A stretch of DNA of 12,283 nucleotides, taken from UHGV virus genome UHGV-0153572; one strand, written 5' to 3'. A program made the translations under genes and the position numbers. Below, in pieces: positions 1 through 12,283 of the stretch. Source of the DNA: a virus. Under the pieces are notes generated by a model. It saw only the letters and a program-made list of their open reading frames with translations, was not told where the DNA came from and did not search any database. Numbering within the stretch: position 1 is the stretch's first letter; each line of letters opens with the position of its first letter.

Positions 1-272
1 AGTAAGGCCAAACGCCTTAAAACGGTTGCAGGGGCATAGATTTTCAACCATTCATCTCTCAGCTTGGCGACATCGGCACTCCTGATGCTGGCCATATAGT
101 TTTTCGCCAGCTGAGTGCCTTTTAGTATCCGCACCAATGATTGGTCTTGCACTGCCCCTTTTTTGTCGGGAACAATCTCTTTTTCATATCGCGTTAGGGC
201 TTCATACAATGTCGTAGATTCCGCTTCGCTGCGGCTAAGCCAAACTCCTCTCGCCATTTCTGACTCGATCAT
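1..272 (-). CDS. Partial CDS (N-terminal ~90 codons; continues past the window start): putative tyrosine recombinase/integrase, core-binding N-terminal region
   Basis: Minus-strand ORF with ATG at 272..270 (alternative in-frame ATG at 284..282), open to position 1. Translation MIESEMARGVWLSRSEAESTTLYEALTRYEKEIVPDKKGAVQDQSLVRILKGTQLAKNYMASIRSADVAKLRDEWLKIYAPATVLRRLAL. The RYEK ... NYM(A/S)-I ... TVxRRLALL spacing resembles the core-binding domain of lambda-Int-type recombinases. Not in the ORF track because it is cut by the window edge. Confidence 0.4.
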   Translation of the reverse strand, partial: MIESEMARGVWLSRSEAESTTLYEALTRYEKEIVPDKKGAVQDQSLVRILKGTQLAKNYMASIRSADVAKLRDEWLKIYAPATVLRRLAL

Positions 273-501
273 TTTTGGGAACATACAATGTAATTAAAAT
301 AGACCCAGCTTACCGCCCTGCACCTATTGAACACAAAGATGTTGAGAGGGAAAACCTCGTTTACGGATTTGAGCTTCCCATTGGTAGTTACCACGTTTGC
401 GTATAGTCGCCATTTCTGTCTGATTCCTAACGAACTGTGGCAATATTGTGGCAAAAAATCCATTTAAATTCGATAGGTATTGATTTTACAAGATCAATTT
501 A

Positions 502-550
502 CGCATTCGTAATGCGAAGGTCGTAGGTTCGACTCCTATTATCGGCACCA
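502..550 (+). tRNA. Orphan 3' fragment (49 nt) of a tRNA-Thr(CGU) gene (thrW-type): anticodon arm, variable loop, T-arm, 3' acceptor strand and CCA; putative prophage att core, not a complete tRNA
   Basis: Sequence CGCATTCGTAATGCGAAGGTCGTAGGTTCGACTCCTATTATCGGCACCA matches, from memory, the 3' two-thirds of enterobacterial tRNA-Thr(CGU), including the GGTTCGACTCC T-arm and terminal CCA. The 27 nt upstream (475-501) do not match the 5' acceptor/D-arm, so no cloverleaf can form. Confidence 0.8.
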
Positions 551-564
551 TTTAAATCAATAAG

Positions 565-1728
565 TTACACATCATTAGTACCTTCCTTATTTTTTGACTG
601 GGACAAATTTGGGACCGATGGGTTCAGGATCGAGTCTATTTGCCGTGCGTGTTCGGTAAGGTGATTAGGTGCAAGGTGAGCATATCGACGAACCATTTCG
701 ATAGACTCCCACCCTCCCATTTCCTGTAACACTGACAACGGGACTCCGGCTTGAACCAGCCAACTTGCCCAGGTGTGTCTCAAGTCGTGAAATCTGAAAT
801 CATCAATACCAGCCCGTCTCAGCGCCGCTTTCCAGGCTGTGTTTGCGTCATACCGCATCTTCCTTACTGTTGGCGCTTTCGTTCCGTCTGGTTTGGTACA
901 GCTTTCCTTGTACACAAATACCCAACGGTGATGATTCCCGATTTGTTTTTTCAATACGCGACATGCAGTATCATTCAGCGCAACGCCAATTGCGCGGTTT
1001 GATTTACTCTCTTCCGGGTTTATCCATGCCACCCGGCGCTGCATATCTATTTGTTGCCATTCAAGGTTGATGATGTTCGAGCGTCTTAAACCTGTTGCCA
1101 GTGCAAATTCAACAACAGACTTTAATGGCTCCGGACATTCATCAATCAGCCTTTGTGCTTCATGGGGCTCCAGCCAGCGGATCCGTTTATTCTTTGGTTG
1201 AGGCACTTTAATAATTGGTGCCTTATCCAGCATTTTCCATTCACGCTCTGCGGCTCTTAGTAGGGCCTTTATAAATGAAAGATGCGTAGCCTTCGTTGCA
1301 ACGGACGCTGGTTTTGGCGTGTATTCTGGAACAGGTTTCCCTTTTTTTCTGCATGCTTCTGCCCTGAGTTTCCAGTTTTCCTCATGACGCCGGTTCGTCA
1401 TTTTCTGCATTGCTGAATAAATTTTTGATTCAGTAATGTCTCTTAGTTGCATTCCTGCGAAATGTTGAAGCCAGAATCCGATCCGGCTTTTGTCATCGTC
1501 CAGTGATTTTTTATGTGCTTTCTCTTCAAGCCACCTGACACACGCTTCCTCGAACGTTATATCAGGTATTTCACCAAGTTTGCTGACCCGCCATGCTTCA
1601 GCCTTTAGCTTGTCATGGAGTTCTGTCGCCTGCCTTTTGTCCTTTGTTCCAAGAGACTGTTTAAATCTTTTACCGTTCGGCAATGTGAAACTGGCGTACC
1701 ATATTTCACCTCTGCGGAAGAGTGACAT
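565..1728 (-). CDS. int: Site-specific tyrosine integrase, phage P22 Int-type (387 aa)
   Basis: 387-aa ORF with ATG at 1728..1726 preceded by an AGGAAAG/GAGG Shine-Dalgarno. C-terminal catalytic signature of tyrosine recombinases ([39 protein letters not shown], with R...HxxR...Y). Length and N-terminus ([24 protein letters not shown]) resemble P22 Int as remembered. Its 3' end lies 15 bp from the tRNA-Thr att core. Confidence 0.93.
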
Positions 1729-1955
1729 TTTCTTTCCTCTGTTATGCCATCACCCGCGCTCACCTGGACAGTATGCAGCGGAGACTGAAGAGCCGCAATG
1801 CAGGCTTGTCGTGTTGTGAGGTAAGGAGATTTATTCTTAGTGGGATCTTTGCGTGTTGCCTGAAGACGCCCTGTGCGTATCCAGTTAATGGCAGTCGGTC
1901 TGGATATCTTGAGAAAATGACAGGCCTCATCGAGTGTGAGGCTGTATGGCTCCAT
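1605..1955 (-). CDS. xis: Excisionase (Xis), helix-turn-helix excisionase family, 116 aa
   Basis: ATG at 1955..1953 with GAGGTG Shine-Dalgarno 6 nt upstream. N-terminus [33 protein letters not shown] fits the excisionase/AlpA-type HTH pattern. It overlaps the int start by ~120 nt, as in P22 xis-int. The ORF-track entry 1605..2039 is trimmed to the internal Met with an RBS. Confidence 0.75.
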
Positions 1956-2260
1956 TATTTCACCTCTTGCTGTGACATTGTTGAAAAATGGATACCAGCT
2001 CGTTGCTGCCAGACGATCCAACCGAGAGTCATATCCCATGCCATGTATTCGTTATCGCCGTTTTTTGCTCTCCGACGATCTACTAAGTCACCGAAACGCT
2101 TTTCCATGAATAATTCATAAGCTTCGCGTTCATCTGGTTCTACTTCCAGCGATAGGAGTGCGATTTCATAAGCACGGCGCTCAATATCGTCTCGCACGTC
2201 AAGGCTGCTGATACGCTCTTTAATTTCTTTAATCAGTTCTTTGTCGGTAAAAGTGATCAT
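1955..2260 (-). CDS. Hypothetical phage accessory protein (101 aa), acidic, no recognised domain
   Basis: ATG at 2260..2258. Its TAA stop (1957..1955) overlaps the xis ATG (TAATG), indicating translational coupling within the leftward operon. Sequence MITFTDKELIKEIKERISSLDVRDDIERRAYEIALL... Confidence 0.55.
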   Translation of the reverse strand: MITFTDKELIKEIKERISSLDVRDDIERRAYEIALLSLEVEPDEREAYELFMEKRFGDLVDRRRAKNGDNEYMAWDMTLGWIVWQQRAGIHFSTMSQQEVK

Positions 2261-2622
2261 TATGCTCCAGCCTCCGGTGCTTTTGGCATTATTGCCCAGT
2301 GAGTGATATTGACGTTTTCAAGGTCCCCGACCTGAAATGTCCACAGCCATTCTCCGGTTTCTTTTTGTCCCCAGGTGTACCAGAGAGAACGCCAGCCAAT
2401 TAGCCAGCCTTCTCCGTTAGCATCAAATAACAAAACACTTTCATTTGCTGGTGGCAGTTCAGCTGACACTGGTATTACTTTGTTTTCCTGTGCTGCACAT
2501 TTAGCTTCAAGCGCATCGAATTTACGCACCAGGTATTCAGCATCTGTTTCATTTACTTTCAGATCTCGCGGTACACATCTCCCACGAAGAAACCCTTCCA
2601 TTTCGAAAACATTCATGCGCAT
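2260..2622 (-). CDS. DUF551-like phage protein (118-120 aa)
   Basis: C-terminal Trp-rich block WLIGWRSLWYTWGQKETGEWLW...ITHWAIMPKAPE resembles the DUF551 signature (...THWMPLPEPP) common in lambdoid early-left regions. Candidate starts are ATG 2622 or ATG 2616; the latter overlaps the stop of the upstream HD gene (ATGA). Its stop overlaps the next gene's ATG (TAATG at 2258-2262). Confidence 0.6.
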   Translation of the reverse strand: MRMNVFEMEGFLRGRCVPRDLKVNETDAEYLVRKFDALEAKCAAQENKVIPVSAELPPANESVLLFDANGEGWLIGWRSLWYTWGQKETGEWLWTFQVGDLENVNITHWAIMPKAPEAGA

Positions 2623-3149
2623 TTGCGTAACTCCGATAACTCGTTAAAACGTTCCATAAACATCCCGTAGGCATGGCCCGGTGCCTGTGGAATCACTTTG
2701 AACATCTCTGTTGCCGGGATACCTTCCAGTACAGGCCAGAAAGAGCCATCATCAAGCCCGAGATCGCGGCGTTCGGTTGCCAGCATAATGAGATCGGCAT
2801 ATTTCACTGGCGTGCTCATAACAGGAGGTAACCCGTATTTCTCACGTATTACGGCGTCTATTTTTTCTTCCATCCGTTTATAGTCAGGAAGAAGTCGTTT
2901 CAGTGGTGCGGGGATGTCCTGGCAATATGCTTCTGTTGCATCATGCATTAAAGCTTCAAAAGCAAATTCCTGTGGCACCAGCTGGCTGCAAAGCACCGCA
3001 TGTTGGGCGACACTGTAGAAGTGTGAAAGATGTCCTGCAAAGCGACAGATATTTGAAAGGGAAACCGCGATATCGTTAATAACGATGTCGTCTTTATTTA
3101 TCCTGTCATAATAAAAATGCTTCCCGGAAAAAGTTTTAATAAATGACAT
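2613..3149 (-). CDS. HD-domain metal-dependent phosphohydrolase (178 aa from ATG 3149; the ORF extends to a GTG at 3176)
   Basis: H...HD motif context (VAQHAVLCSQ ... EALMHDATEAY) and later acidic residues typical of the HD phosphohydrolase superfamily. ATG 3149..3147 has a GGAGA Shine-Dalgarno 5 nt upstream; the longer ORF-track version starts at GTG 3176 without an obvious RBS. Confidence 0.7.
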   Translation of the reverse strand: MSFIKTFSGKHFYYDRINKDDIVINDIAVSLSNICRFAGHLSHFYSVAQHAVLCSQLVPQEFAFEALMHDATEAYCQDIPAPLKRLLPDYKRMEEKIDAVIREKYGLPPVMSTPVKYADLIMLATERRDLGLDDGSFWPVLEGIPATEMFKVIPQAPGHAYGMFMERFNELSELRKCA

Positions 3150-3273
3150 TTTGTTCTCCACGTATATGCGCTGCACCGCGCTGAATTCGGGTAAAAGGAA
3201 GCCCTCACCGTCCGGCGATTATTGAGTCAATTACATTTCCATAAATGCCCCCGTAGGGGCGGTTAGTTTCTCC

Positions 3274-3362
3274 ACAAAACAGAGAAGAACACCTGCGGTG
3301 GCAGCCGCCCGGATGGATTGGGTTATGAGCCCGTCGTCCGGTGATGCTCTTCTCTGTTTTGT
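3274..3362. repeat. 15-bp perfect inverted repeat (ACAAAACAGAGAAGA at 3274-3288; TCTTCTCTGTTTTGT at 3348-3362) with a 59-bp spacer, in the divergent intergenic region
   Basis: Direct reading: reverse complement of 3274-3288 equals 3348-3362 exactly. Lies between the leftward (int-proximal) and rightward operons. A GC-rich hairpin (GCCCC-CGTA-GGGGC, 3247-3260) lies just upstream. Confidence 0.6.
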
Positions 3363-3407
3363 AAAAAGGACGGTATCCGCCTGACGGCTAATCAGGCATA
3401 TCACCAG

Positions 3408-3611
3408 ATGGTGAAGCTGGGGATCGTCGAGCAGCGCGAACGATACAGCCGTACCGCGATTAACAACATCAAAAAATTCTGGTCGCTGACAGCGAAAGGC
3501 TGCATGTTCGGCAAGAACATCACCAGTCCTGCAAATCCGCGCGAGACGCAGCCGCATTTCTTCGAATCCCGATTCCCTGAGCTGTTAAAGCTGCTCGATA
3601 CCGTTCATTGA
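3408..3611 (+). CDS. Possible small hypothetical protein (67 aa); weak call
   Basis: ATG ORF ending 1 nt before the start of the next gene; amino-acid composition is more protein-like than the overlapping minus-strand 108-aa ORF. No strong RBS identified; could equally be non-coding regulatory sequence. Confidence 0.25.
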   Translation: MVKLGIVEQRERYSRTAINNIKKFWSLTAKGCMFGKNITSPANPRETQPHFFESRFPELLKLLDTVH

Positions 3612-3612
3612 G

Positions 3613-4608
3613 GTGACCGTGAGAGCACTACTGACCCCTGAAATAGCCCCGCGTATGGGGATCGTATTGTTCAGACCCGGTTCAGAGCTGATGCCCCTGT
3701 TTATGCAGGGGCGTGTCCTGCTGGAGCCTGAGCCGGAACGTTATTCATCTTTCGCCAGTGGTGCCGTTCCCGCGGCATCACAACCGCTGGCGGATGATCC
3801 TGCCGTTCGAGCCGTGTTCTGCAATGAGGCAGTGATCCGTCGTGCTGGTGGCGTGGAATGTCTTGAAAGCTGGTTACTTCGTGAAAAGGGCTGTCAGTGG
3901 CCTCATTCCGACTGGCACAGCGAGAACATGACCACAATGCGACACGCGCCGGGCGCGATCCGTCTGTGCTGGCACTGCGATAACCAGCTGCGCGATCAGT
4001 TCACGGAACGGCTGGAATCAATGGCAACGGATAACTGTGCCCGCTGGGTGTTGTCTGTTGTGCGTCGGGATCTCGGTTTTGATGACAGTCACGTTGTGAC
4101 AATGCCGGAACTGTGCTGGTGGCTGATTCGTAATGACCTGGCGGATGCCTTACCGGAAAGTGCAGCCCGTAAGGCACTGAGATTACCGAAGCCTGTTGTG
4201 CCGTCTGTCACCCGGGAAAGTGACCTTGTGCCTTCGGTTCCTGCCACCAGCATCATCCAGGATAAGGCGAAAAAGGTGCTGGCGCTGAAAGTGGATCCGG
4301 AGTCGCCGGAGTCTTTTATGTTACGCCCAAAACGTCGCCGCTGGGTTAATGAAAAGTACACGCGCTGGGTTAAGACACAGCCGTGTGCATGTTGTGGAAA
4401 GCCTGCTGATGATCCCCACCACCTGATAGGCCACGGTCAGGGTGGGATGGGTACAAAAGCGCATGACCTCTTTGTGTTGCCTTTGTGCAGAAAGCATCAC
4501 GACGAGCTGCATGCGGATACCGTGGCATTTGAAGAGAAGTATGGCTCCCAGCTGGAGCTGATATTTCGTTTTATCGATCGTGCGCTGGCAATAGGCGTAC
4601 TGGCGTAA
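3613..4608 (+). CDS. DUF968-like phage protein with C-terminal HNH/zinc-binding nuclease-like motif (~330 aa)
   Basis: C-terminal CACCGKPADDPHHLIGHGQGGMGTKAHDLFVLPLCRKHHDELH has Cys pairs and HH...H spacing like HNH-type modules. Overall architecture resembles the DUF968 (YdfU-type) proteins of lambdoid nin regions as remembered. Start is GTG 3613, or GTG 3619 with a GAGGTG Shine-Dalgarno. Confidence 0.7.
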   Translation: MTVRALLTPEIAPRMGIVLFRPGSELMPLFMQGRVLLEPEPERYSSFASGAVPAASQPLADDPAVRAVFCNEAVIRRAGGVECLESWLLREKGCQWPHSDWHSENMTTMRHAPGAIRLCWHCDNQLRDQFTERLESMATDNCARWVLSVVRRDLGFDDSHVVTMPELCWWLIRNDLADALPESAARKALRLPKPVVPSVTRESDLVPSVPATSIIQDKAKKVLALKVDPESPESFMLRPKRRRWVNEKYTRWVKTQPCACCGKPADDPHHLIGHGQGGMGTKAHDLFVLPLCRKHHDELHADTVAFEEKYGSQLELIFRFIDRALAIGVLA

Positions 4609-4621
4609 GTGGAGAACGAGC

Positions 4622-5350
4622 ATGAACCTTGAAGCTTTACCAAAATATTACTCCCCAAAATCTCCAAAATTGAGTGATGACGCACCGGCGACAGGCTCGG
4701 GTGGTTTAACAATTACAGATGTGATGGCTGCGCAGGGGATGGTGCAGTCGAAAGCACCGCTTGGGTTTGCCTTATTCCTGGCAAAAGTTGGTGTTCAGGA
4801 TCCTCAGTTTGCGATTGAAGGTCTGCTCAATTACGCGATGGCACTGGATAACCCGACATTGAACAAATTGAGTGAAGAAATCCGGTTACAGATCATCCCT
4901 TACCTTGTGAATTTTGCCTTTGCTGATTATTCCAGGTCTGCGGCAAGTAAGGCTCGCTGTGAGCATTGTGCTGGTACTGGATTTCATAATGTATTGCGCG
5001 AGGTGGTGAAACACTCCAGAAGCGGGGAATCTGTTATCAAGGAAGAGTGGGTGAAGGAACTATGTCAGCATTGTCATGGTAAGGGAGAAGTCAGCACAGC
5101 GTGCAGAGGGTGTAAGGGTAAAGGTATTGTCCTGGATGAAAAAAGGACCCGGCTTCATGGCACGCCTGTTTATAAGATTTGTGGGCGTTGCAATGGAAAC
5201 CGATTTAGCCGTTTACCAACCACACTGGCGCGGAATCATGTCCAGAAGCTGGTACCAGACCTGCCGAAGATCTGGGAAAAGTCACTTTCCGCCCGTCCAT
5301 CACGGCTTATGTGGTGGGAGATGACTGCTTTGACCAGCGCGATCGCCTGA
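4622..5350 (+). CDS. Phage antitermination protein Q-like protein with DnaJ-type zinc-finger repeats (242 aa); C-terminus possibly chimeric
   Basis: ATG 4622 with GGAGA Shine-Dalgarno. Four CxxCxGxG-type motifs (CEHCAGTG, CQHCHGKG, CRGCKGKG, CGRCNGNR; nt ~4958-5191). Resembles, from memory, the Q-type antiterminators of E. coli lambdoid prophages that sit next to a DUF968 gene. The last ~30 codons overlap, in another frame, DNA homologous to the DNA-circulation gene. Confidence 0.65.
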   Translation: MNLEALPKYYSPKSPKLSDDAPATGSGGLTITDVMAAQGMVQSKAPLGFALFLAKVGVQDPQFAIEGLLNYAMALDNPTLNKLSEEIRLQIIPYLVNFAFADYSRSAASKARCEHCAGTGFHNVLREVVKHSRSGESVIKEEWVKELCQHCHGKGEVSTACRGCKGKGIVLDEKRTRLHGTPVYKICGRCNGNRFSRLPTTLARNHVQKLVPDLPKIWEKSLSARPSRLMWWEMTALTSAIA

Positions 5351-6465
5351 TTGACGCGCTGAATAAACCCGGTCCCGGCACGCTTGTCCACCCGACATAC
5401 GGTGAGTTGAAAGTCTGTGTTGACGGGGAAGTTCGGGTCAGCACATCGAAGAGTGAAGGGCGTATTGTCCGCTTTGACCTGAAGTTTGTCGAAGCGGGAG
5501 ATCTCTCTTACCCCACATCAGGCGTGGCGACGGCGCAGACGCTGATGTCATCCTGTTCTGCACTGGATGACTGCATCAGTGACAGCTTCAGCGGTTTCAG
5601 TATCGATGGCGTGGCAGATTTTGTGCAGAACGACGTCGTCGGTAATGTCGGCACAATGCTTGGGTATGTTTCTGATGCGATGAAAGTGGTGGATTCTGCC
5701 GTATCGGATGCCGCCAGGCTGTTGCAGGGGGATATCTCGGTACTTCTTCCGCCGCCATCGTCAGGCAAAAATTTCGTTGAGCAGGTGCAGAAAATGTGGC
5801 GTACCGGGAAACGCCTTTATGGTAACGCCAGCGACCTGGTCACCATGATCAAAACGCTTTCCGGTGTCAGCCTTGGCAGCGATCTGCAACCGCGCGGCGT
5901 CTGGAAAACGGACAGTAAAACCACCGCCACGGCGACGCAGCAGCGTAACGTGGTTGCCAGCACCCTTCGTACGACCGCAATCAGCGAAGCGGCGTATGTC
6001 GTCACACGATTGCCTGCGCCCACAACTTCCGCGGTGATGCAGAATGCCACAGTGGGGCAGTCAACAACACCCGCGCAGAGCACCGGCTGGCCTTCTGTCA
6101 CGCATCCGGCACTGAACAATGCACCGGCGGTGAAAAACACGGTTGACCTGCCAACGTGGGAAGAACTGACCGACATTCGCGACACACTGAATACGGCAAT
6201 TGATAAGGAGTTGTCCCGTACAACCAGTGATGCGCTGTTTCTGGTGCTGCGCCGGGTGAAAGCAGATCTGAATGCGGATATCAACACGCGCCTTGAACAG
6301 TCTGCACGGATCATTCAGCGCACGCCGGATGAGGTTTTACCCGCGCTGGTGCTGGCGGCGACCTGGTTTGATAACGCGGCGCGTGACGCGGACATTATCC
6401 GGCGTAATGCCATTACGCATCCCGGCTTTGTGCCGGTGATCCCTCTGAAGGTGCCAGTGCAATGA
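5311..6465 (+). CDS. Mu-type DNA circulation protein (gpN family), N-terminally truncated; possible pseudogene
   Basis: Contains the family block AYVVGDDCFDQRDRLIDALNKPGPGTLVHPTYGELKV. The frame is open upstream only to 5209 (in-frame TAG at 5206-5208) and similarity begins around AEDLGK (~5263). The first possible start is GTG 5311 with no RBS, so ~45-60 N-terminal residues of a typical homologue are absent. Confidence 0.75.
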   Translation: MVGDDCFDQRDRLIDALNKPGPGTLVHPTYGELKVCVDGEVRVSTSKSEGRIVRFDLKFVEAGDLSYPTSGVATAQTLMSSCSALDDCISDSFSGFSIDGVADFVQNDVVGNVGTMLGYVSDAMKVVDSAVSDAARLLQGDISVLLPPPSSGKNFVEQVQKMWRTGKRLYGNASDLVTMIKTLSGVSLGSDLQPRGVWKTDSKTTATATQQRNVVASTLRTTAISEAAYVVTRLPAPTTSAVMQNATVGQSTTPAQSTGWPSVTHPALNNAPAVKNTVDLPTWEELTDIRDTLNTAIDKELSRTTSDALFLVLRRVKADLNADINTRLEQSARIIQRTPDEVLPALVLAATWFDNAARDADIIRRNAITHPGFVPVIPLKVPVQ

Positions 6466-7541
6466 ACGACAATGTCACGCTACGGGTAAATGGCCGGGAG
6501 TGGAATGGCTGGACATCGGTGCGCATCGGTGCCGGTATTGAACGGCTGGCGCGGGATTTCAGTGTGGAGATCACCCGCCAGTGGCCGGGAGATGAGGGTA
6601 TCACCACGCTTCAGCCGCGCATTAAAAACGGTTCAAAAGTGGAAGTGCTGATTGGTGATGAGCTGGTGATCACCGGCTGGGTGGAGGCGACGCCCGTTCG
6701 TTACGATGCCCGTTCGGTCAGCACCGGTATTGCCGGACGTAGTCTGACGGCTGACCTGATTGACTGTGCAGCCGAACCGACACAGTTTAACGGACGCTCG
6801 CTGGTGCAGATTGCGCAGGCGCTTGCTGCGCCTTTCGGCATTGAGGTGGTGAACAGCGGTGCGCCGTCGGGTGTTATTCCTGATGTTCAGCCTGATCACG
6901 GTGAAACGGTGATTGAGGTAATAAACAAAATACTCGGTCAGCAGCAGGCGCTGGCTTACGACGACCCGCACGGCAGGCTGGTGATTGGCGGTATTGGCTC
7001 AACGCGGGCACATACCGCGCTGGTACTTGGGGAAAACATCCTTTCCTGCGATACGGAGAAGAGTATCCGGGAGCGGTTTTCTGTTTACCAGGTGGCGGGG
7101 CAGCGTGCCGGAAACGACGATGATTTCGGTGAGGTCACCACCACCGCGCTGCGGGCCCGCACAGAGGACGCATTTATTGCCCGTTACCGTCCGATGTATA
7201 TCAGGCAGACAGGGCAGGCCACGGGGGCAGGCTGTATTGCGCGTGCTGACTTTGAAGCCCGACAACGGGCGGCGCGGACGGATGAAACCACCTATGTGGT
7301 GCAGGGCTGGCGACAGGGTAACGGTACGCTGTGGCAGCCCAACCAGCGGGTGATTGTCTTTGATCCGGTCTGTGGTTTCGACAATACCGAACTGCTTGTC
7401 TCGGAAGTCACGTTTACTCAGGACCAGAACGGCACCCTGACGGAAATCCGTGTCGGCCCGCCTGATGCTTATCTGCCTGAACCCGAAGCCCCCGGCGCGC
7501 GGAAAAAGAAAAAAGCCAGAGTACAGGAGGACCCGTTCTGA
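6462..7541 (+). CDS. Mu gpP-type tail/baseplate protein (phage late control D / baseplate hub family), 359 aa
   Basis: ATG 6462 overlaps the upstream stop (ATGA). Size, position directly after the DNA-circulation gene and sequence character fit the Mu P / P2 gpD family. Part of a tightly overlapping operon. Confidence 0.8.
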   Translation: MNDNVTLRVNGREWNGWTSVRIGAGIERLARDFSVEITRQWPGDEGITTLQPRIKNGSKVEVLIGDELVITGWVEATPVRYDARSVSTGIAGRSLTADLIDCAAEPTQFNGRSLVQIAQALAAPFGIEVVNSGAPSGVIPDVQPDHGETVIEVINKILGQQQALAYDDPHGRLVIGGIGSTRAHTALVLGENILSCDTEKSIRERFSVYQVAGQRAGNDDDFGEVTTTALRARTEDAFIARYRPMYIRQTGQATGAGCIARADFEARQRAARTDETTYVVQGWRQGNGTLWQPNQRVIVFDPVCGFDNTELLVSEVTFTQDQNGTLTEIRVGPPDAYLPEPEAPGARKKKKARVQEDPF

Positions 7542-8089
7542 TGAGGACGATTGAAGCCATGCAGCGACAACTTCTCGGCCTGATTGCGCGGGCAGTGGTG
7601 AAAAGCATCAGTGCCGCCACGAAATGTCAGACCGTGGATGTGTCCCTGATTGCCGGTGAACCCAAAGCCGGGGTTGAACATCTTGAACCCTACGGTTTTA
7701 CCGCAAGGGCAAACAGCGGCGCGGAAGCGGTGGTGTTGTTTCCGGATGGCGACCGTTCTCATGCGGTGGTTGTTACGGTGTCGGACCGGCGCTACCGCCT
7801 GAAAGGGTTGCAGACGGGTGAGGTGGCTGTCTATGACGATCAGGGGCAGTCTGTGACGCTGACCCGGGAGGGGATCGTGGTGGACGGTGCAGGTAAAACG
7901 ATCACGTTTCGCAATTCACCTAAAGCACGTTTTGAAATGGACCTGGAAGTGACAGGACAGGTGAAAGACCTGTGCGACTCCAGCGGCACTACCATGTCAG
8001 CGATGCGGCTTGCCTATAACGGGCATCGTCACAGAGAGAACGGTCAGGGCAGTAACACCGACAAACCGGATAAAGCGATGGAGGCATGA
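7541..8089 (+). CDS. Baseplate assembly protein V-type (Mu gp45-like spike protein), 182 aa
   Basis: ATG 7541 overlaps the upstream TGA (TGATG), with an AGGAGG Shine-Dalgarno. N-terminal region MRTIEAMQRQLLGLIARAVVKSI...GEPKAGVEHLEPYGFTARA is typical of the phage baseplate V family. Confidence 0.8.
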   Translation: MRTIEAMQRQLLGLIARAVVKSISAATKCQTVDVSLIAGEPKAGVEHLEPYGFTARANSGAEAVVLFPDGDRSHAVVVTVSDRRYRLKGLQTGEVAVYDDQGQSVTLTREGIVVDGAGKTITFRNSPKARFEMDLEVTGQVKDLCDSSGTTMSAMRLAYNGHRHRENGQGSNTDKPDKAMEA

Positions 8090-8514
8090 TGGAACTGTGG
8101 CTGACGGTGAACGGTAAACGCACCTGCGCCAGCGCACCGCTGGATCCGCTGACCCGCGCCGTGGTGATTTCCCTGTTTACCTGGCGGCGGGCGGAGCCTG
8201 ATGACAACGCCGACGTCCCGATGGGATGGTGGGGGGATACCTGGCCTGCGGTACAGAATGACCGTTACGGCTCCCGACTGTGGCTGCTTCAGCGCAGCAA
8301 ACTGACCAATCAGCTGGTGCAGACAGTAAGGGGGTATATCCGCGAATGCCTGCAATGGATGATTGATGACGGCGTGGTGTCCCGTATTGATCTGGATATC
8401 CGCCGCACCGGGATTAATGAGCTGGGTAACAGTATCACCCTCTGGCGTCGTGACGGACCGGTAATGATTTCTTTTGATGATCTGTGGAGTGCGATAACGC
8501 ATGGCGGACAGTGA
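8086..8514 (+). CDS. Phage GP46-family baseplate protein (Mu gp46 / gpW-like), 142 aa
   Basis: ATG 8086 overlaps the upstream stop, with a GGAGG Shine-Dalgarno. Small protein in the conserved position between the V-type and J-type baseplate genes. Confidence 0.8.
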   Translation: MMELWLTVNGKRTCASAPLDPLTRAVVISLFTWRRAEPDDNADVPMGWWGDTWPAVQNDRYGSRLWLLQRSKLTNQLVQTVRGYIRECLQWMIDDGVVSRIDLDIRRTGINELGNSITLWRRDGPVMISFDDLWSAITHGGQ

Positions 8515-9559
8515 ATTTCAGCGCCCGACGCTGGCAGAAAATATCAGTATGCTCCGTAACGATTTATTCGCCAGGCTGGACGTCAGCGACACGCTCCGGC
8601 GCATGGATGAAGACGTGCGGGCAAAGGTGTATGCGGCGGCGCTGCATACGGTTTACGGGTACATCGATTATCTGGCAATGAACATGCTGCCTGACCTGTG
8701 CGATGAGTCCTGGCTGGCGCGACATGCTGCGATGAAACGGTGTCCGCGCAAGGGGGCCACGGCTGCCAGCGGGTATATGCGTTGGGAAGGTGTCAGCGAT
8801 GGCCTGAAGGTGACCGCCGGGAGTGTTATTCAGCGCGATGACCTGGTTCAGTACACGGCAACTGCCGATGCAACCAGCTCCGGTGGTGTCCTGCGCGTGC
8901 CGATCGCCTGCTCAAGTGCAGGCGCGGTCGGTAACGCTGACGACGGTACGTCATTAATCCTGGTCACGCCGGTTAATGGTCTGCCGTCTTCCGGCGTGGC
9001 AGATACCCTTACAGGCGGATTTGATACTGAAGAGCTGGAAACGTGGCGCGCCCGCGTCATTGAGCGGTATTACTGGACGCCTCAGGGCGGGGCTGACGGG
9101 GACTATGTCGTCTGGGCTAAAGAAGTGCCCGGCATTACCCGCGCATGGACATACCGTCACTGGATGGGAACGGGAACTGTCGGTGTGATGATTGCCAGCA
9201 GTGACCTGATTAATCCCATTCCGGAAGAATCAACGGAAACGGCAGCAAGACAACATATCGGGCCACTGGCCCCGGTGGCAGGCTCTGATTTGTATGTATT
9301 CAGGCCGGTGGCACATACGGTGGATTTTCATATCCGCGTGACGCCGGACACACCGGAAATACGGGCTGCCATTACCGCGGAGTTGCGTTCGTTCCTGCTG
9401 CGTGATGGTTATCCGCAGGGAGAACTGAAGGTATCGCGTATCAGTGAGGCGATTTCCGGTGCGAACGGGGAATACAGCCATCAGTTGCTTGCACCGGTGG
9501 ACAATATCTCCATTGCGAAAAACGAACTGGCGGTACTGGGGACGATTTCATGGACGTGA
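8501..9559 (+). CDS. Baseplate J-like protein (Mu gp47 family), 352 aa
   Basis: ATG 8501, overlapping the upstream gene by 14 nt. Size and synteny (after gp46-like, before the DUF2313 gene) fit the Baseplate_J family. Confidence 0.8.
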
Positions 9560-10134
9560 CAAACGATGATTACATCCGCCTGTTATCGGCACTGTTGCCG
9601 CCCGGTCCGGCGTGGTCAGCCAGCGATCCGGCGATTGCCGGTGCGGCACCGTCATTAACCCGTGTTCATCAGCGTGCGGATGCCCTGATGCGGGAGCTGG
9701 ATCCGCGCACCACCACTGAACTGATAAACCGCTGGGAGCGTCTGTGCGGTCTGCCGGATGAATGTATTCCGGCGGGAACGCAGACCCTTCGCCAGCGTCA
9801 GCAACGGCTGGATGCGAAGGTTAACCTGGCGGGCGGCATCAACGAGGATTTTTATCTTGCACAGCTTGCTGCCCTGGGCAGACCAGATGCCACCATCACG
9901 CGATACGACAAAAGCACGTTCACCTGCTCATCGGCCTGTACTGACGCGGTGAATGCGCCGGAATGGCGGTATTACTGGCAGGTCAACATGCCAGCCGCCA
10001 CCAACACCACCTGGATGACATGTGGCGATCCCTGTGATTCCGCACTGCGTATCTGGGGTGACACCGTTGTCGAGTGTGTGCTTAACAAACTCTGCCCGTC
10101 GCATACCTACGTAATTTTTAAATATCCGGAGTAA
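9550..10134 (+). CDS. DUF2313 tail protein (Mu gp48 / P2 gpI-like; YmfQ-type), 194 aa
   Basis: ATG 9550, overlapping the upstream gene by 10 nt. N-terminus [22 protein letters not shown]... and the Cys-rich C-terminus resemble, from memory, the YmfQ/DUF2313 proteins encoded immediately upstream of tail-fibre genes. Confidence 0.8.
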
Positions 10135-10137
10135 TCC

Positions 10138-10902
10138 ATGCATCGTATAGACACGAAAACCGCGCAGAAGGATAAGTTCGGCGCGGGTAAGAACGGTTTT
10201 ACCCGTGGTAACCCCCAGACCGGCACGCCTGCCACCGATCTGGATGATGACTACTTTGACATGTTGCAGGAAGAGCTTTGTGGCGTGGTGGAGGCATCCG
10301 GTGCCAGCCTGGAGAAGGGGCGGCATGACCAGCTGCTTACCGCGCTTCGTGCGCTGCTGTTAAGCCGCAAGAATCCGTTTGGCGATATCAAATCGGATGG
10401 CACCGTGAAAACGGCTCTCGAAAACCTTGGTTTGGGAGAAGGTGCTCCAGCTATTGGCGTTCCGTTCTTCTGGCCGTCCGCTGCAATGCCAAATACTGTA
10501 ATCGACAGCTGGTCCGGTATGGTGTTTTTGAAGTTCAACGGCGCGAAATTCTCTGCCACTGATTACCCTGTGCTGGCGAAAGTGTTTCCTTCGCTGGTAT
10601 TACCTGAAGCCCGCGGTGATTTCATTCGTATCTGGGATAATGGTCGTGGTGTAGATAGTGGACGTGGATTACTTAGTACGCAGTCTGACCTGATGAAACA
10701 ATTTACTTTGCAATACTACGGTCCTTCTGCTGGTACTGGAACAAGAACGGTTTTCGCCCTCCAGAGTAATGCGAACGGCATATATACGAGTGGTATTAGT
10801 CAGAATGATGGTAGTGGCACCGCTGCGGCTTTTAATGTACCAGGCGGCACCGAAACACGCCCACGTAACATTGCATTCAACTTTTTAGTAAGGGCTAAAT
10901 AA
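10138..10902 (+). CDS. Tail fibre protein (S-type): conserved N-terminal baseplate-attachment region plus variable C-terminal receptor-binding region, 254 aa
   Basis: ATG 10138 with GGAG Shine-Dalgarno. N-terminus [55 protein letters not shown] is the conserved tail-fibre constant region. Codons ~93-101 ([10 protein letters not shown]) are encoded by a Hin/Gin-type crossover-like site. The AT-richer downstream part is the variable region. Confidence 0.85.
10415..10440. other. Candidate Hin/Gin/Cin/Pin-family DNA-invertase crossover site inside the tail-fibre gene
   Basis: CTCTCGAAAACC-TT-GGTTTGGGAGAA: 26 bp with near-symmetric 12-bp arms around a central dinucleotide. It matches the remembered hixL (TTCTTGAAAACCAAGGTTTTTGATAA) at 19/26 positions and shares the AAACC/GGTTT core with gix. 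It sits at the constant/variable junction of the fibre gene, as gix does in Mu S. Confidence 0.55.
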
Positions 10903-11495
10903 TGAAACCTGTTTTTGATAAAAATGGGCTGGCTACAGTACCGGGTGATATGCGTTGTTTTTATTATGATGCAGTAACGTCTGAATATACTGGCTGGTCT
11001 GATGAATATATTAATACTGGTGTAAGTATGCCCGCCTGTTCCACTGGTATTGACCCGGGCGAATACATTCCGGGGAAAGTGGCAGTATTTACGGGTAAGG
11101 GATGGAGCCATGAAGAAGACCACCGCAATGAGACTGCTTACTCAATCGAAAATGGCGCAGCTGTTACAGTGGATTATATCGGTGCCATCAAAGACGGTTA
11201 TGTCACGCTTTCACCGTTAACGCCATACGATAAATGGGATGGTGAGAAATGGGTGACAGATACTGAGGCACAGCATAGTGCCTCAGTAGACGCGGCAGAA
11301 GCACAGCGCCAGTCGCTGATTGATGCTGCAATGGCTTCCATCAGTCTGATTCAACTGAAATTGCAGGCCGGGCGGAAGCTGACGCAGGCAGAAACAACCC
11401 GACTTAACGCCGTGCTGGATTACATTGACGCGGTGACGGCAACAGATACCAGCACCGCGCCGGATATCATCTGGCCTGAACAGCCGGAGGCGTAG
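10902..11495 (+). CDS. Tail fibre assembly chaperone (Tfa / Mu U-type), 197 aa
   Basis: ATG 10902 overlaps the tail-fibre stop (TAATG). N-terminus [36 protein letters not shown] and C-terminal DTSTAPDIIWPEQPEA are characteristic of the Tfa family. Confidence 0.9.
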   Translation: MKPVFDKNGLATVPGDMRCFYYDAVTSEYTGWSDEYINTGVSMPACSTGIDPGEYIPGKVAVFTGKGWSHEEDHRNETAYSIENGAAVTVDYIGAIKDGYVTLSPLTPYDKWDGEKWVTDTEAQHSASVDAAEAQRQSLIDAAMASISLIQLKLQAGRKLTQAETTRLNAVLDYIDAVTATDTSTAPDIIWPEQPEA

Positions 11496-11907
11496 GCCAT
11501 TCAATATCTGGAGCACTGGAAGTATCGACCAGTTCCAGTGCGTCAAGATAATCCAGCCATAAATTATATTGCGCCAGTTCCTCACCTTTCAGACGACCAA
11601 TAGCAGCCTTTCCTGGCCACTGCTTACTGTTAATATATTCATTAACTCGATTTATGAGTGCCTGTTTTTTTCGTTCCGCTTCTGACAGTTGTTCTTCATG
11701 AGTTAGCGGCGGTACGTCATCCCATGCAGGATAGCCATCATCACCCGCAACTCTCACTTTCCCTGGAGGTGGGGACAGGTACTTAATAAATATATCCTCA
11801 TCAACTTCAACTCCATTATGAGGCCATAACCCAGACTTCTTATACTGACTTTCCAGAGTAAATGGGTAAAACATATTAGTTTTAGCATCGTAAAGATATT
11901 TACTCAT
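11467..11907 (-). CDS. Second tail fibre assembly chaperone (Tfa'-type), inverted orientation, 146 aa
   Basis: ATG 11907..11905 with AGGAAG Shine-Dalgarno 7 nt upstream. C-terminus ...LVDTSSAPDIEWPTPPAVQAR carries the Tfa family motif. Its 3' end overlaps the plus-strand tfa 3' end convergently by 29 nt. The ORF-track version (to 12006) is trimmed to the Met with an RBS. Confidence 0.8.
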   Translation of the reverse strand: MSKYLYDAKTNMFYPFTLESQYKKSGLWPHNGVEVDEDIFIKYLSPPPGKVRVAGDDGYPAWDDVPPLTHEEQLSEAERKKQALINRVNEYINSKQWPGKAAIGRLKGEELAQYNLWLDYLDALELVDTSSAPDIEWPTPPAVQAR

Positions 11908-11908
11908 T

Positions 11909-12283
11909 TTATCTTCCTGTGGCAAACCAGCGGCAACCAGCGACAGTTGGAACATTGAAGGATGGATTTCCTTTATCAAGAGATCCCAGGTTATCTGCCA
12001 TGACACTTGAGTTAGTCAATTGATAGAATTGCCATACTGACATTTTCCCTGGCACAGGAGCATGGTCATGTTCATTAATAGAAATGACGCCTGTCGGAAA
12101 TGGGATAGGAAAATTAATCAAAACTTCATTTATTGTGGCCCCAGTTAGCCCCCATTGTTCAATATAACCATCCGGGCTTCGCCTCCATCCCGTCGTTGTA
12201 TCTCCCCAAAAGCCAAGAACTCGGACATTGGCAGCAGCACCAGCATGTGGATCAGTGCTACATCCATTTTGGTATCTCTTGCA
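11909..12283 (-). CDS. Partial CDS (C-terminal 124 codons; 5' end beyond the window): alternative tail-fibre C-terminal (receptor-binding) region
   Basis: Minus-strand frame is open from the window end to the TAA at 11911..11909, 1 nt before the tfa' start. Translation ...ANVRVLGFWGDTTTGWRRSPDGYIEQWGLTGATINEVLINFPIPFPTGVISINEHDHAPVPGK... contains the PDGxIxQWG-type motif of tail-fibre distal domains and a diverged copy of the LGxGxG junction. Confidence 0.7.
   Translation of the reverse strand, partial: CKRYQNGCSTDPHAGAAANVRVLGFWGDTTTGWRRSPDGYIEQWGLTGATINEVLINFPIPFPTGVISINEHDHAPVPGKMSVWQFYQLTNSSVMADNLGSLDKGNPSFNVPTVAGCRWFATGR

Follow-up and report, generated by a model that had tools for sequence, protein, structure and literature searches.

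The gene examined here, on the minus strand of a 12,283-nt stretch of viral DNA (UHGV-0153572; hereafter the window), is an ordinary copy of yfdR, an already known and named prophage gene. Comparison of sequences, together with analogy to characterised relatives, leads us to favour, with a probability of roughly 0.6, a reading in which the yfdR product is a nucleotide-pool phosphohydrolase of a lambdoid prophage, made from the early leftward transcript and possibly damping initiation at oriC. In an intact phage, yfdR would be transcribed with yfdS, yfdT, xis and int on the leftward early transcript, and YfdR would act on the nucleotide pool while phage DNA replicates. The chemistry would be attack of a metal-activated water on the 5′-phosphate, converting a dNMP to nucleoside and phosphate. 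YfdR may in addition dampen initiation at the host oriC, with DnaA binding as a second property of the protein that is possibly specific to enterobacteria.

The window gene is yfdR

The open reading frame reported in the earlier note at 2613..3176 is real, and its product carries the motif LMHDATEAY (residues 67–75 in the numbering of a 178-aa form). It lies on the minus strand, which the note left unstated, and has 187 codons when read from a GTG. The ATG at 3149..3147, in frame with the GTG, is on the sequence the better start: it gives a protein of 178 aa, as in K-12 YfdR and most relatives. The 5′ end first assigned to the gene thus probably lies 27 nt too far upstream. The matches of most relatives likewise start at residues 1–4 of the 178-aa form. 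The features discussed below are collected in Table 1.

Table 1. Features of the yfdR region and of the deletion joints, in window coordinates.
Feature	Position	Strand	Remarks
int, tyrosine integrase	565..1728	−	Pfam Phage_integrase E = 3e-48
xis, excisionase-like HTH gene	1605..1955	−	Pfam HTH_17 E = 1.6e-8; PHROG 2907 'excisionase' E = 1e-50
yfdT, 101 aa	1955..2260	−	95% identical to K-12 YfdT; PHROG 660
yfdS (DUF551), 120 aa	2260..2622	−	95% identical to K-12 YfdS; PHROG 583 E = 1e-81
yfdR CDS	2613..3149	−	178 aa; predicted HD-domain nucleotide phosphohydrolase
Asp119 codon, last metal ligand (VKYAD motif)	2793..2795	−	at least 90% conserved in 70-sequence alignment
His69-Asp70 codons, HD dyad in LMHDATEAY	2940..2945	−	at least 90% conserved in 70-sequence alignment
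His50 codon, first HD metal ligand	3000..3002	−	invariant in 70-sequence alignment
Shine-Dalgarno GGAG	3156..3159	−	6 nt 5′ of yfdR ATG; read off the sequence
Deletion joint 1	3363..3384		22-nt overlap of two alignments to the intact H8 prophage
Deletion joint 2	5263..5266		Q-type antiterminator 4622..5263, annotated without its C-terminus, abuts Mu gpN-like circularization gene 5266..6465, N-truncated

The protein is identical to K-12 YfdR (b2361, cryptic prophage CPS-53, '5′-deoxynucleotidase'), which has the same 178 aa, at 174 of 178 positions (98%; BLASTP E = 1e-136), and none of the four substitutions (R16K, K151N, Q155L, E170D) falls on a catalytic residue. It matches PHROG 318, 'deoxyribonucleoside 5′ monophosphate phosphatase', at E = 3.8e-109, and its sequence assigns it to the YfdR orthologous group and to that PHROG, with similarities well outside anything due to chance. 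E. coli strain TUM10008 holds DNA 100% identical to the window gene, annotated by RefSeq as yfdR / WP_000008235.1. A 1051-bp query running from the 5′ end of yfdT through yfdS and yfdR, both complete, to the 101 bp that precede yfdR matched 3252 of 5426 complete E. coli genomes (about 60%), under the RefSeq label 'yfdR: 5′-deoxynucleotidase'. The gene had at first been treated as unknown, which does not fit with its being annotated as a 5′-deoxynucleotidase in thousands of genomes. Against the K-12 alleles, dN/dS was 0.067 for yfdR, 0.156 for yfdS and 0.104 for yfdT, low values that indicate purifying selection on the coding sequences, a record of past selection only.

YfdR has a complete HD site in a predicted HD fold

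The LMHDATEAY motif had been read as part of an HD-superfamily site, and wider comparison bears this out. In an alignment of 70 YfdR relatives with 40–67% identity, H50 was invariant, and R36, F37, H40, H69 (codon 2945..2943), D70 (codon 2942..2940), E73, D78, K116 and D119 were each at least 90% conserved; these residues were also retained in homologues from virulent and other distant phages (MAFFT alignment). Judged from these alignments, the protein has a complete H...HD...D site together with R36, E73, D78 and K116, as in small nucleotide phosphohydrolases. An AlphaFold model (pLDDT 97.5, pTM 0.92) and a fold search gave the all-alpha fold of the HD superfamily. Sequence and model together identify YfdR as a member of the HD superfamily, and as a predicted metal-dependent phosphohydrolase.

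The Pfam HD and YfbR-like profiles put forward as a check in the earlier note did find the protein, in each case below the gathering score (YfbR-like PF12917, 24.5 vs 25.9 bits; HD_3, 17.1 vs 22.5 bits), and no Pfam HD model passed its threshold. The NCBIfam YfbR equivalog model (PRK03826) likewise scored 19.9 vs 122 bits, and identity of YfdR with the YfbR equivalog was rejected on the NCBIfam and PF12917 scores. Because these profile scores are sub-threshold, HD membership rests on motif conservation and fold; the low Pfam HD scores are a gap in model coverage, not counter-evidence on the fold.

YfbR, the housekeeping 5′-deoxynucleotidase / dCMP phosphohydrolase (PDB 2paq, 2par), has about 20% identity to the phage-borne YfdR of the window. 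The central segment alone (HDAsEvltGDlPtPvK) aligned between the two by BLASTP, hhalign (E = 4.8e-8) and MAFFT, and all three paired H68, D69, E72 and D77 of YfbR with H69, D70, E73 and D78 of YfdR. The termini were left unaligned by MAFFT and hhalign; there, R18, W19, H33, K134 and D137 of YfbR have motif-level counterparts in R36, F37, H50, K116 and D119, and we infer the equivalence of the N- and C-terminal ligands from motif resemblance and fold. The catalytic and substrate residues of YfbR, reportedly described by Zimmerman in 2008, are said to be R18, H33, H68, D69, E72, D77 and D137, and the YfbR sequence does carry the stated residue type at each of these positions. The same work is said to have proposed Trp19 as a deoxyribose selectivity switch; Phe37, conserved to 90% or more across the family of YfdR, is its apparent counterpart when the RW and RF motifs are compared. 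Atu1052 of Agrobacterium tumefaciens (PDB 2gz4) is in the same structural subfamily as YfdR; it is chromosomal, entered the PDB without an assigned function and adds no functional information.

For DatZ, the HD dATP triphosphohydrolase of cyanophage S-2L (PDB 6zpa), a two-metal mechanism with the ligands H34, H66, D67 and D119 plus E70 and K116 has been described and proposed for all HD phosphohydrolases (PMC8065100). The corresponding YfdR residues are H50, H69, D70, D119, E73 and K116; the match of Asp119 to D119 of DatZ, as to D137 of YfbR, is one of motif resemblance only. YfdR could itself be a DatZ- or OxsA-like (d)NTP phosphohydrolase or pool sanitiser that removes a particular triphosphate, canonical or non-canonical, during phage replication, a role compatible with the fold but one that we regard as improbable. 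DatZ removes dATP for a 2-aminoadenine genome and does so alongside purZ and mazZ, and no gene of the purZ/mazZ type was found in the window. Whereas the DatZ substrate is dATP, the YfdR activity reported in passages of PMC4776307 and PMC10870394 is on monophosphates, and PHROG 7076 is matched far better by YfbR (E = 4e-31) than by YfdR.

The reaction annotated for the early gene product Dmp of phage T5, a deoxynucleoside-5′-monophosphatase, is the same (5′-dNMP to deoxynucleoside), making Dmp a functional analogue. Homology between Dmp and YfdR was rejected: Dmp is of another fold family, the hhalign probability was 0.09%, and Dmp falls in PHROG 415, of the 'polynucleotide kinase' type, not in PHROG 318.

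The location of the gene in an int-proximal accessory block had suggested to the earlier reader that its product might degrade an immune signal; cyclic-nucleotide phosphodiesterases and alarmone hydrolases such as Aph1 (PMC10083569) are indeed among the members of the HD superfamily. As an anti-defence enzyme, YfdR would act on cyclic oligonucleotides or on alarmones of the (p)ppGpp/(p)ppApp type. The closest folds, however, were nucleotide monoesterases and triphosphohydrolases, not cyclic-nucleotide phosphodiesterases, whose HD domains were far more distant in the fold search (PgpH 5.3, V-cGAP 4.8, HD-GYP about 4); by closest fold and GYP motif, YfdR falls outside the HD / HD-GYP phosphodiesterases. 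PADLOC gave no match in the window, a result of little weight given that its models cover defence, not anti-defence. Together with the gene neighbourhoods of virulent-phage homologues described next, this makes an anti-defence role very improbable.

YfdR relatives recur in replication and nucleotide-metabolism modules of phages

The family is very large. In an exhaustive HMMER search, with clusters formed at the 50% identity level, 22,738 of them matched at E <= 0.001; with the stricter cutoff of E <= 1e-10 the number was 15,310. By tblastn, YfdR matched 332 phage records, among them SKA5 (100%), SfII, cdtI, many Stx2 phages and ST64B (67%), with remoter matches of 27–58% in phages of Klebsiella, Pseudomonas, Vibrio, Caulobacter, Rhizobium, Bacillus and others. 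HD proteins of this YfdR/Atu1052 type turn up repeatedly in phages, whether temperate, virulent or jumbo, and often lie within modules for replication and nucleotide metabolism.

We looked at gene context in nine hand-picked phages, a sample that illustrates and yields no statistic. In the virulent phage phiKT the HD homologue lies in the order primase, helicase, HD homologue, DNA polymerase I, and in the virulent phage JWF it is placed between DNA polymerase I and a ligase followed by a Holliday junction resolvase. VpKK5 has Sak4, SSB, the HD homologue, a Cas4 exonuclease and a helicase; Turba has a dNMP kinase, the HD homologue and a cytosine methyltransferase; and Bacillus phage Chewbecca (L013 1104..5518) has thymidylate synthase, DHFR, the HD homologue, thymidine kinase and Pol III alpha. 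These virulent-phage neighbourhoods, as far as gene content can indicate, point to nucleotide or DNA metabolism over an accessory anti-defence role.

The thymidylate synthase, DHFR and thymidine kinase genes flanking the Chewbecca homologue suggest a possible phage-encoded deoxynucleoside salvage route to dTMP. The set recalls the salvage of deoxycytidine to dTMP, in which YfbR is the dCMP phosphohydrolase according to the K-12 annotation; that route and the part of YfbR in it were reportedly described by Weiss in 2007. In seven relatives (P0122, P0126, P0130, P0139, P0168, P0214 and P0266), of 354–401 aa, two matched stretches suggest tandem-duplicated YfdR-like HD domains.

yfdR heads a leftward gene chain that lacks yfdQ

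On the minus strand, yfdR is followed by yfdS, yfdT, the xis-like HTH gene and int, an order that agrees with the int-proximal leftward block of a lambdoid-type prophage described in the earlier note. The stop of yfdR and the start of yfdS overlap by 10 nt (ATGCGCATGA), TAATG is common to both genes at the yfdS/yfdT junction and again at the yfdT/xis junction, and GGAG or GAGG stands a few bases 5′ of every start in the chain. From these stop/start overlaps and Shine-Dalgarno-like sites, we infer a single transcript with translational coupling. The overlaps in the proposed operon of yfdR with two genes are real, and its co-transcription is putative; the candidate promoter for it is deleted in the window (see below). 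The two partner genes, described at the time as uncharacterised, are indeed small and of unknown function, but they already bear the names YfdS and YfdT. The yfdS product scores 21 bits against the Pfam DUF551 model, just below its threshold of 22. The int gene starts at 1728 (ATG), which would give a 124-nt overlap with xis, or at 1683 according to RefSeq.

K-12 resembles the window in having yfdS and yfdT downstream of yfdR, in the leftward arm of a defective prophage. It differs in that yfdP and yfdQ lie directly upstream of yfdR and torI is the recombination directionality factor, whereas the window is without yfdQ and has xis and int of a different type. The gene order in K-12 and in ST64B runs from a cI-like gene through a yfdP-like gene, yfdQ and yfdR onward to xis and int. 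No ORF of the yfdQ (DUF2303) type was found in the window or in an intact relative, the prophage of E. coli strain H8, and the window therefore lacks the upstream yfdQ of the replication-inhibiting yfdQRST cluster.

To count neighbours we used 80 IMG/VR loci with YfdR at >=94% identity, taking 3 kb per side (upstream sequence reached 1.5 kb or more in 72 of them); these are near-identical E. coli prophages only, a set that serves neighbour counts and not diversity. YfdQ was the most constant neighbour (66/80), with YfdS at 55/80 and YfdT at 27/80, which places the window prophage in a minority lineage without yfdQ. Beside the distant phage homologues of YfdR, DUF2303 was not found.

Two published activities of YfdR

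The yfdQRST genes were isolated as a multicopy suppressor of hda-185 by Noguchi and Katayama (PMC4776307). Extra copies of yfdQRS or yfdQRT inhibit initiation at oriC, in vivo and in vitro (PMC4776307; review PMC5448010), with yfdQ needed for the in vivo phenotype, and K-12 YfdR binds DnaA domain I via Phe46 (PMC4776307). This DnaA binding and the replication-initiation phenotype were missed by the earlier note. Its idea of an action on the nucleotide pool agrees with the activity published for the near-identical K-12 protein, which, according to passages in PMC4776307 and PMC10870394, hydrolyses nucleoside and deoxynucleoside 5′-monophosphates with an affinity below that of the housekeeping YfbR. 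In its passage summarising Zimmerman et al. 2008, PMC4776307 describes YfdR as structurally homologous to YfbR but so much lower in its affinities for nucleotides that its function 'remains elusive', and a passage of the metabolic engineering paper PMC10870394 credits the same study with a phosphatase activity of YfdR on CMP.

The main job of YfdR could be inhibition of host replication, through binding of DnaA domain I at Phe46 in competition with DiaA and DnaB, with the HD site vestigial or regulatory. The multicopy phenotypes speak for this, as does the protein of the window, which differs from K-12 YfdR at only four, non-catalytic, positions. Yet the effect requires overexpression plus yfdQ, which both the window and its intact H8 relative lack; deletion of yfdQRST left replication initiation unchanged, and the authors themselves concede that an overexpression artefact is possible (PMC4776307). 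Moreover, the catalytic residues are conserved over the 22,738 clusters, including homologues in Bacillus, Caulobacter, Vibrio and Rhizobium phages. Conservation so far beyond the enterobacteria argues for selection on catalysis, not on binding of E. coli DnaA, and we hold host inhibition as the main function to be possible but unlikely.

The reading that we favour, a nucleotide-pool phosphohydrolase, has counter-evidence of its own. The reported affinities are low, and deletion had no effect, whether of yfdQRST, as above, or of yfdR, which gave no rise in CMP yield (PMC10870394). Since canonical nucleotides are reportedly bound so weakly and deletions are without phenotype, the real substrate could be something other than canonical dNMPs. 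YfdR might then be a conserved enzyme of phage replication modules that acts on one specific nucleotide, whether damaged, modified or signalling, with inhibition of host initiation through DnaA perhaps added in enterobacterial phages; we rate this as decidedly unlikely.

For the window itself the consequences are small: yfdR is a routine prophage gene, already named, annotated and in part characterised, and the prophage that holds it has decayed. Of broader interest is a very large phage-associated HD family without an established physiological role, whose best-studied member, YfdR, has two unreconciled activities, a weak nucleotidase activity and DnaA binding. Knowing which of them phages use would help to explain how, early in their development, temperate phages deal with nucleotide pools and with the replication of the host.

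The window prophage has lost its early region and the candidate promoter of yfdR

The prophage in the window is lambdoid and defective, and its tail genes are Mu-like. Over positions 1..10441 the window is 100% identical to a prophage of E. coli TUM10008 that is likewise defective. RefSeq labels three genes there as partial: a KilA-N fragment, a Q antiterminator truncated at its C-terminus and a DNA circularization protein truncated at its N-terminus. As the reference for deletions we used strain H8, whose prophage at thrW (locus L001) is intact. Window 502..3384 corresponds to L001 8303..11185 and window 3363..4616 to L001 17317..18574, and about 6.1 kb of the H8 prophage is gone at this first joint: the cI-like ymfK, a cro-like gene, replication genes and a candidate leftward early promoter. 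At the second joint the Q antiterminator abuts the truncated circularization gene, and the prophage is thus without its lysis and head genes and most of those for the tail. The first joint has also left a C-terminal KilA-N fragment at 3363..3611 (plus strand) fused to the region upstream of yfdR, and a 108-codon ORF at 3231..3557 (minus strand) crosses the joint and is probably a chimera.

The H8 prophage carries a near-consensus leftward promoter, TTGACA-16-CATAAT, at L001 12056..12029, reading towards yfdR. A terminator-like hairpin precedes it, and both lie within L001 12029..12084, just 3′ of the cI-like ymfK. The site may be the equivalent of pL for the transcript from yfdR to int. Hairpin and promoter are both inside the segment deleted from the window, and a search of the minus-strand sequence upstream of yfdR in the window gave no sigma-70-like site. 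With the candidate promoter deleted and no such site upstream, expression of yfdR is doubtful; in the window the gene is probably transcribed weakly or not at all.

Independently of what YfdR does, the gene might thus be an unexpressed passenger of a decaying prophage, of no use to its present host. The two internal deletions, which removed immunity, replication, lysis and head genes, and the loss of the H8-type leftward promoter support this. On the other side, the yfdR ORF is intact and the yfdR-yfdS-yfdT-xis-int chain unbroken, weak or read-through transcription is possible, and CPS-53 genes of K-12 that are similarly cryptic have stress phenotypes on deletion, according to work cited in a passage of PMC4776307. 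We put passenger status at somewhat short of an even chance.

Two further regions of the window differ in state or annotation. Window 10422..12207, which holds tail fibre and assembly genes, is 99.9% identical to TUM10008 (L003 16266..14481) in inverted orientation; its TUM10008 counterpart adjoins pinE, and the region looks like a Pin-type invertible segment in the other orientation. RefSeq annotates a 112-nt 'tRNA-Ser' on the TUM10008 sequence identical to window 439..550. ARAGORN found no tRNA there, the Rfam tRNA model reached 22.3 bits (threshold 29) at 476..543, and neither program found an RNA gene anywhere in the window. The segment 439..550 looks like a 3′ tRNA fragment or an att core, and homology to the H8 attachment-site region, with its tRNA-Thr gene, begins at window 502.
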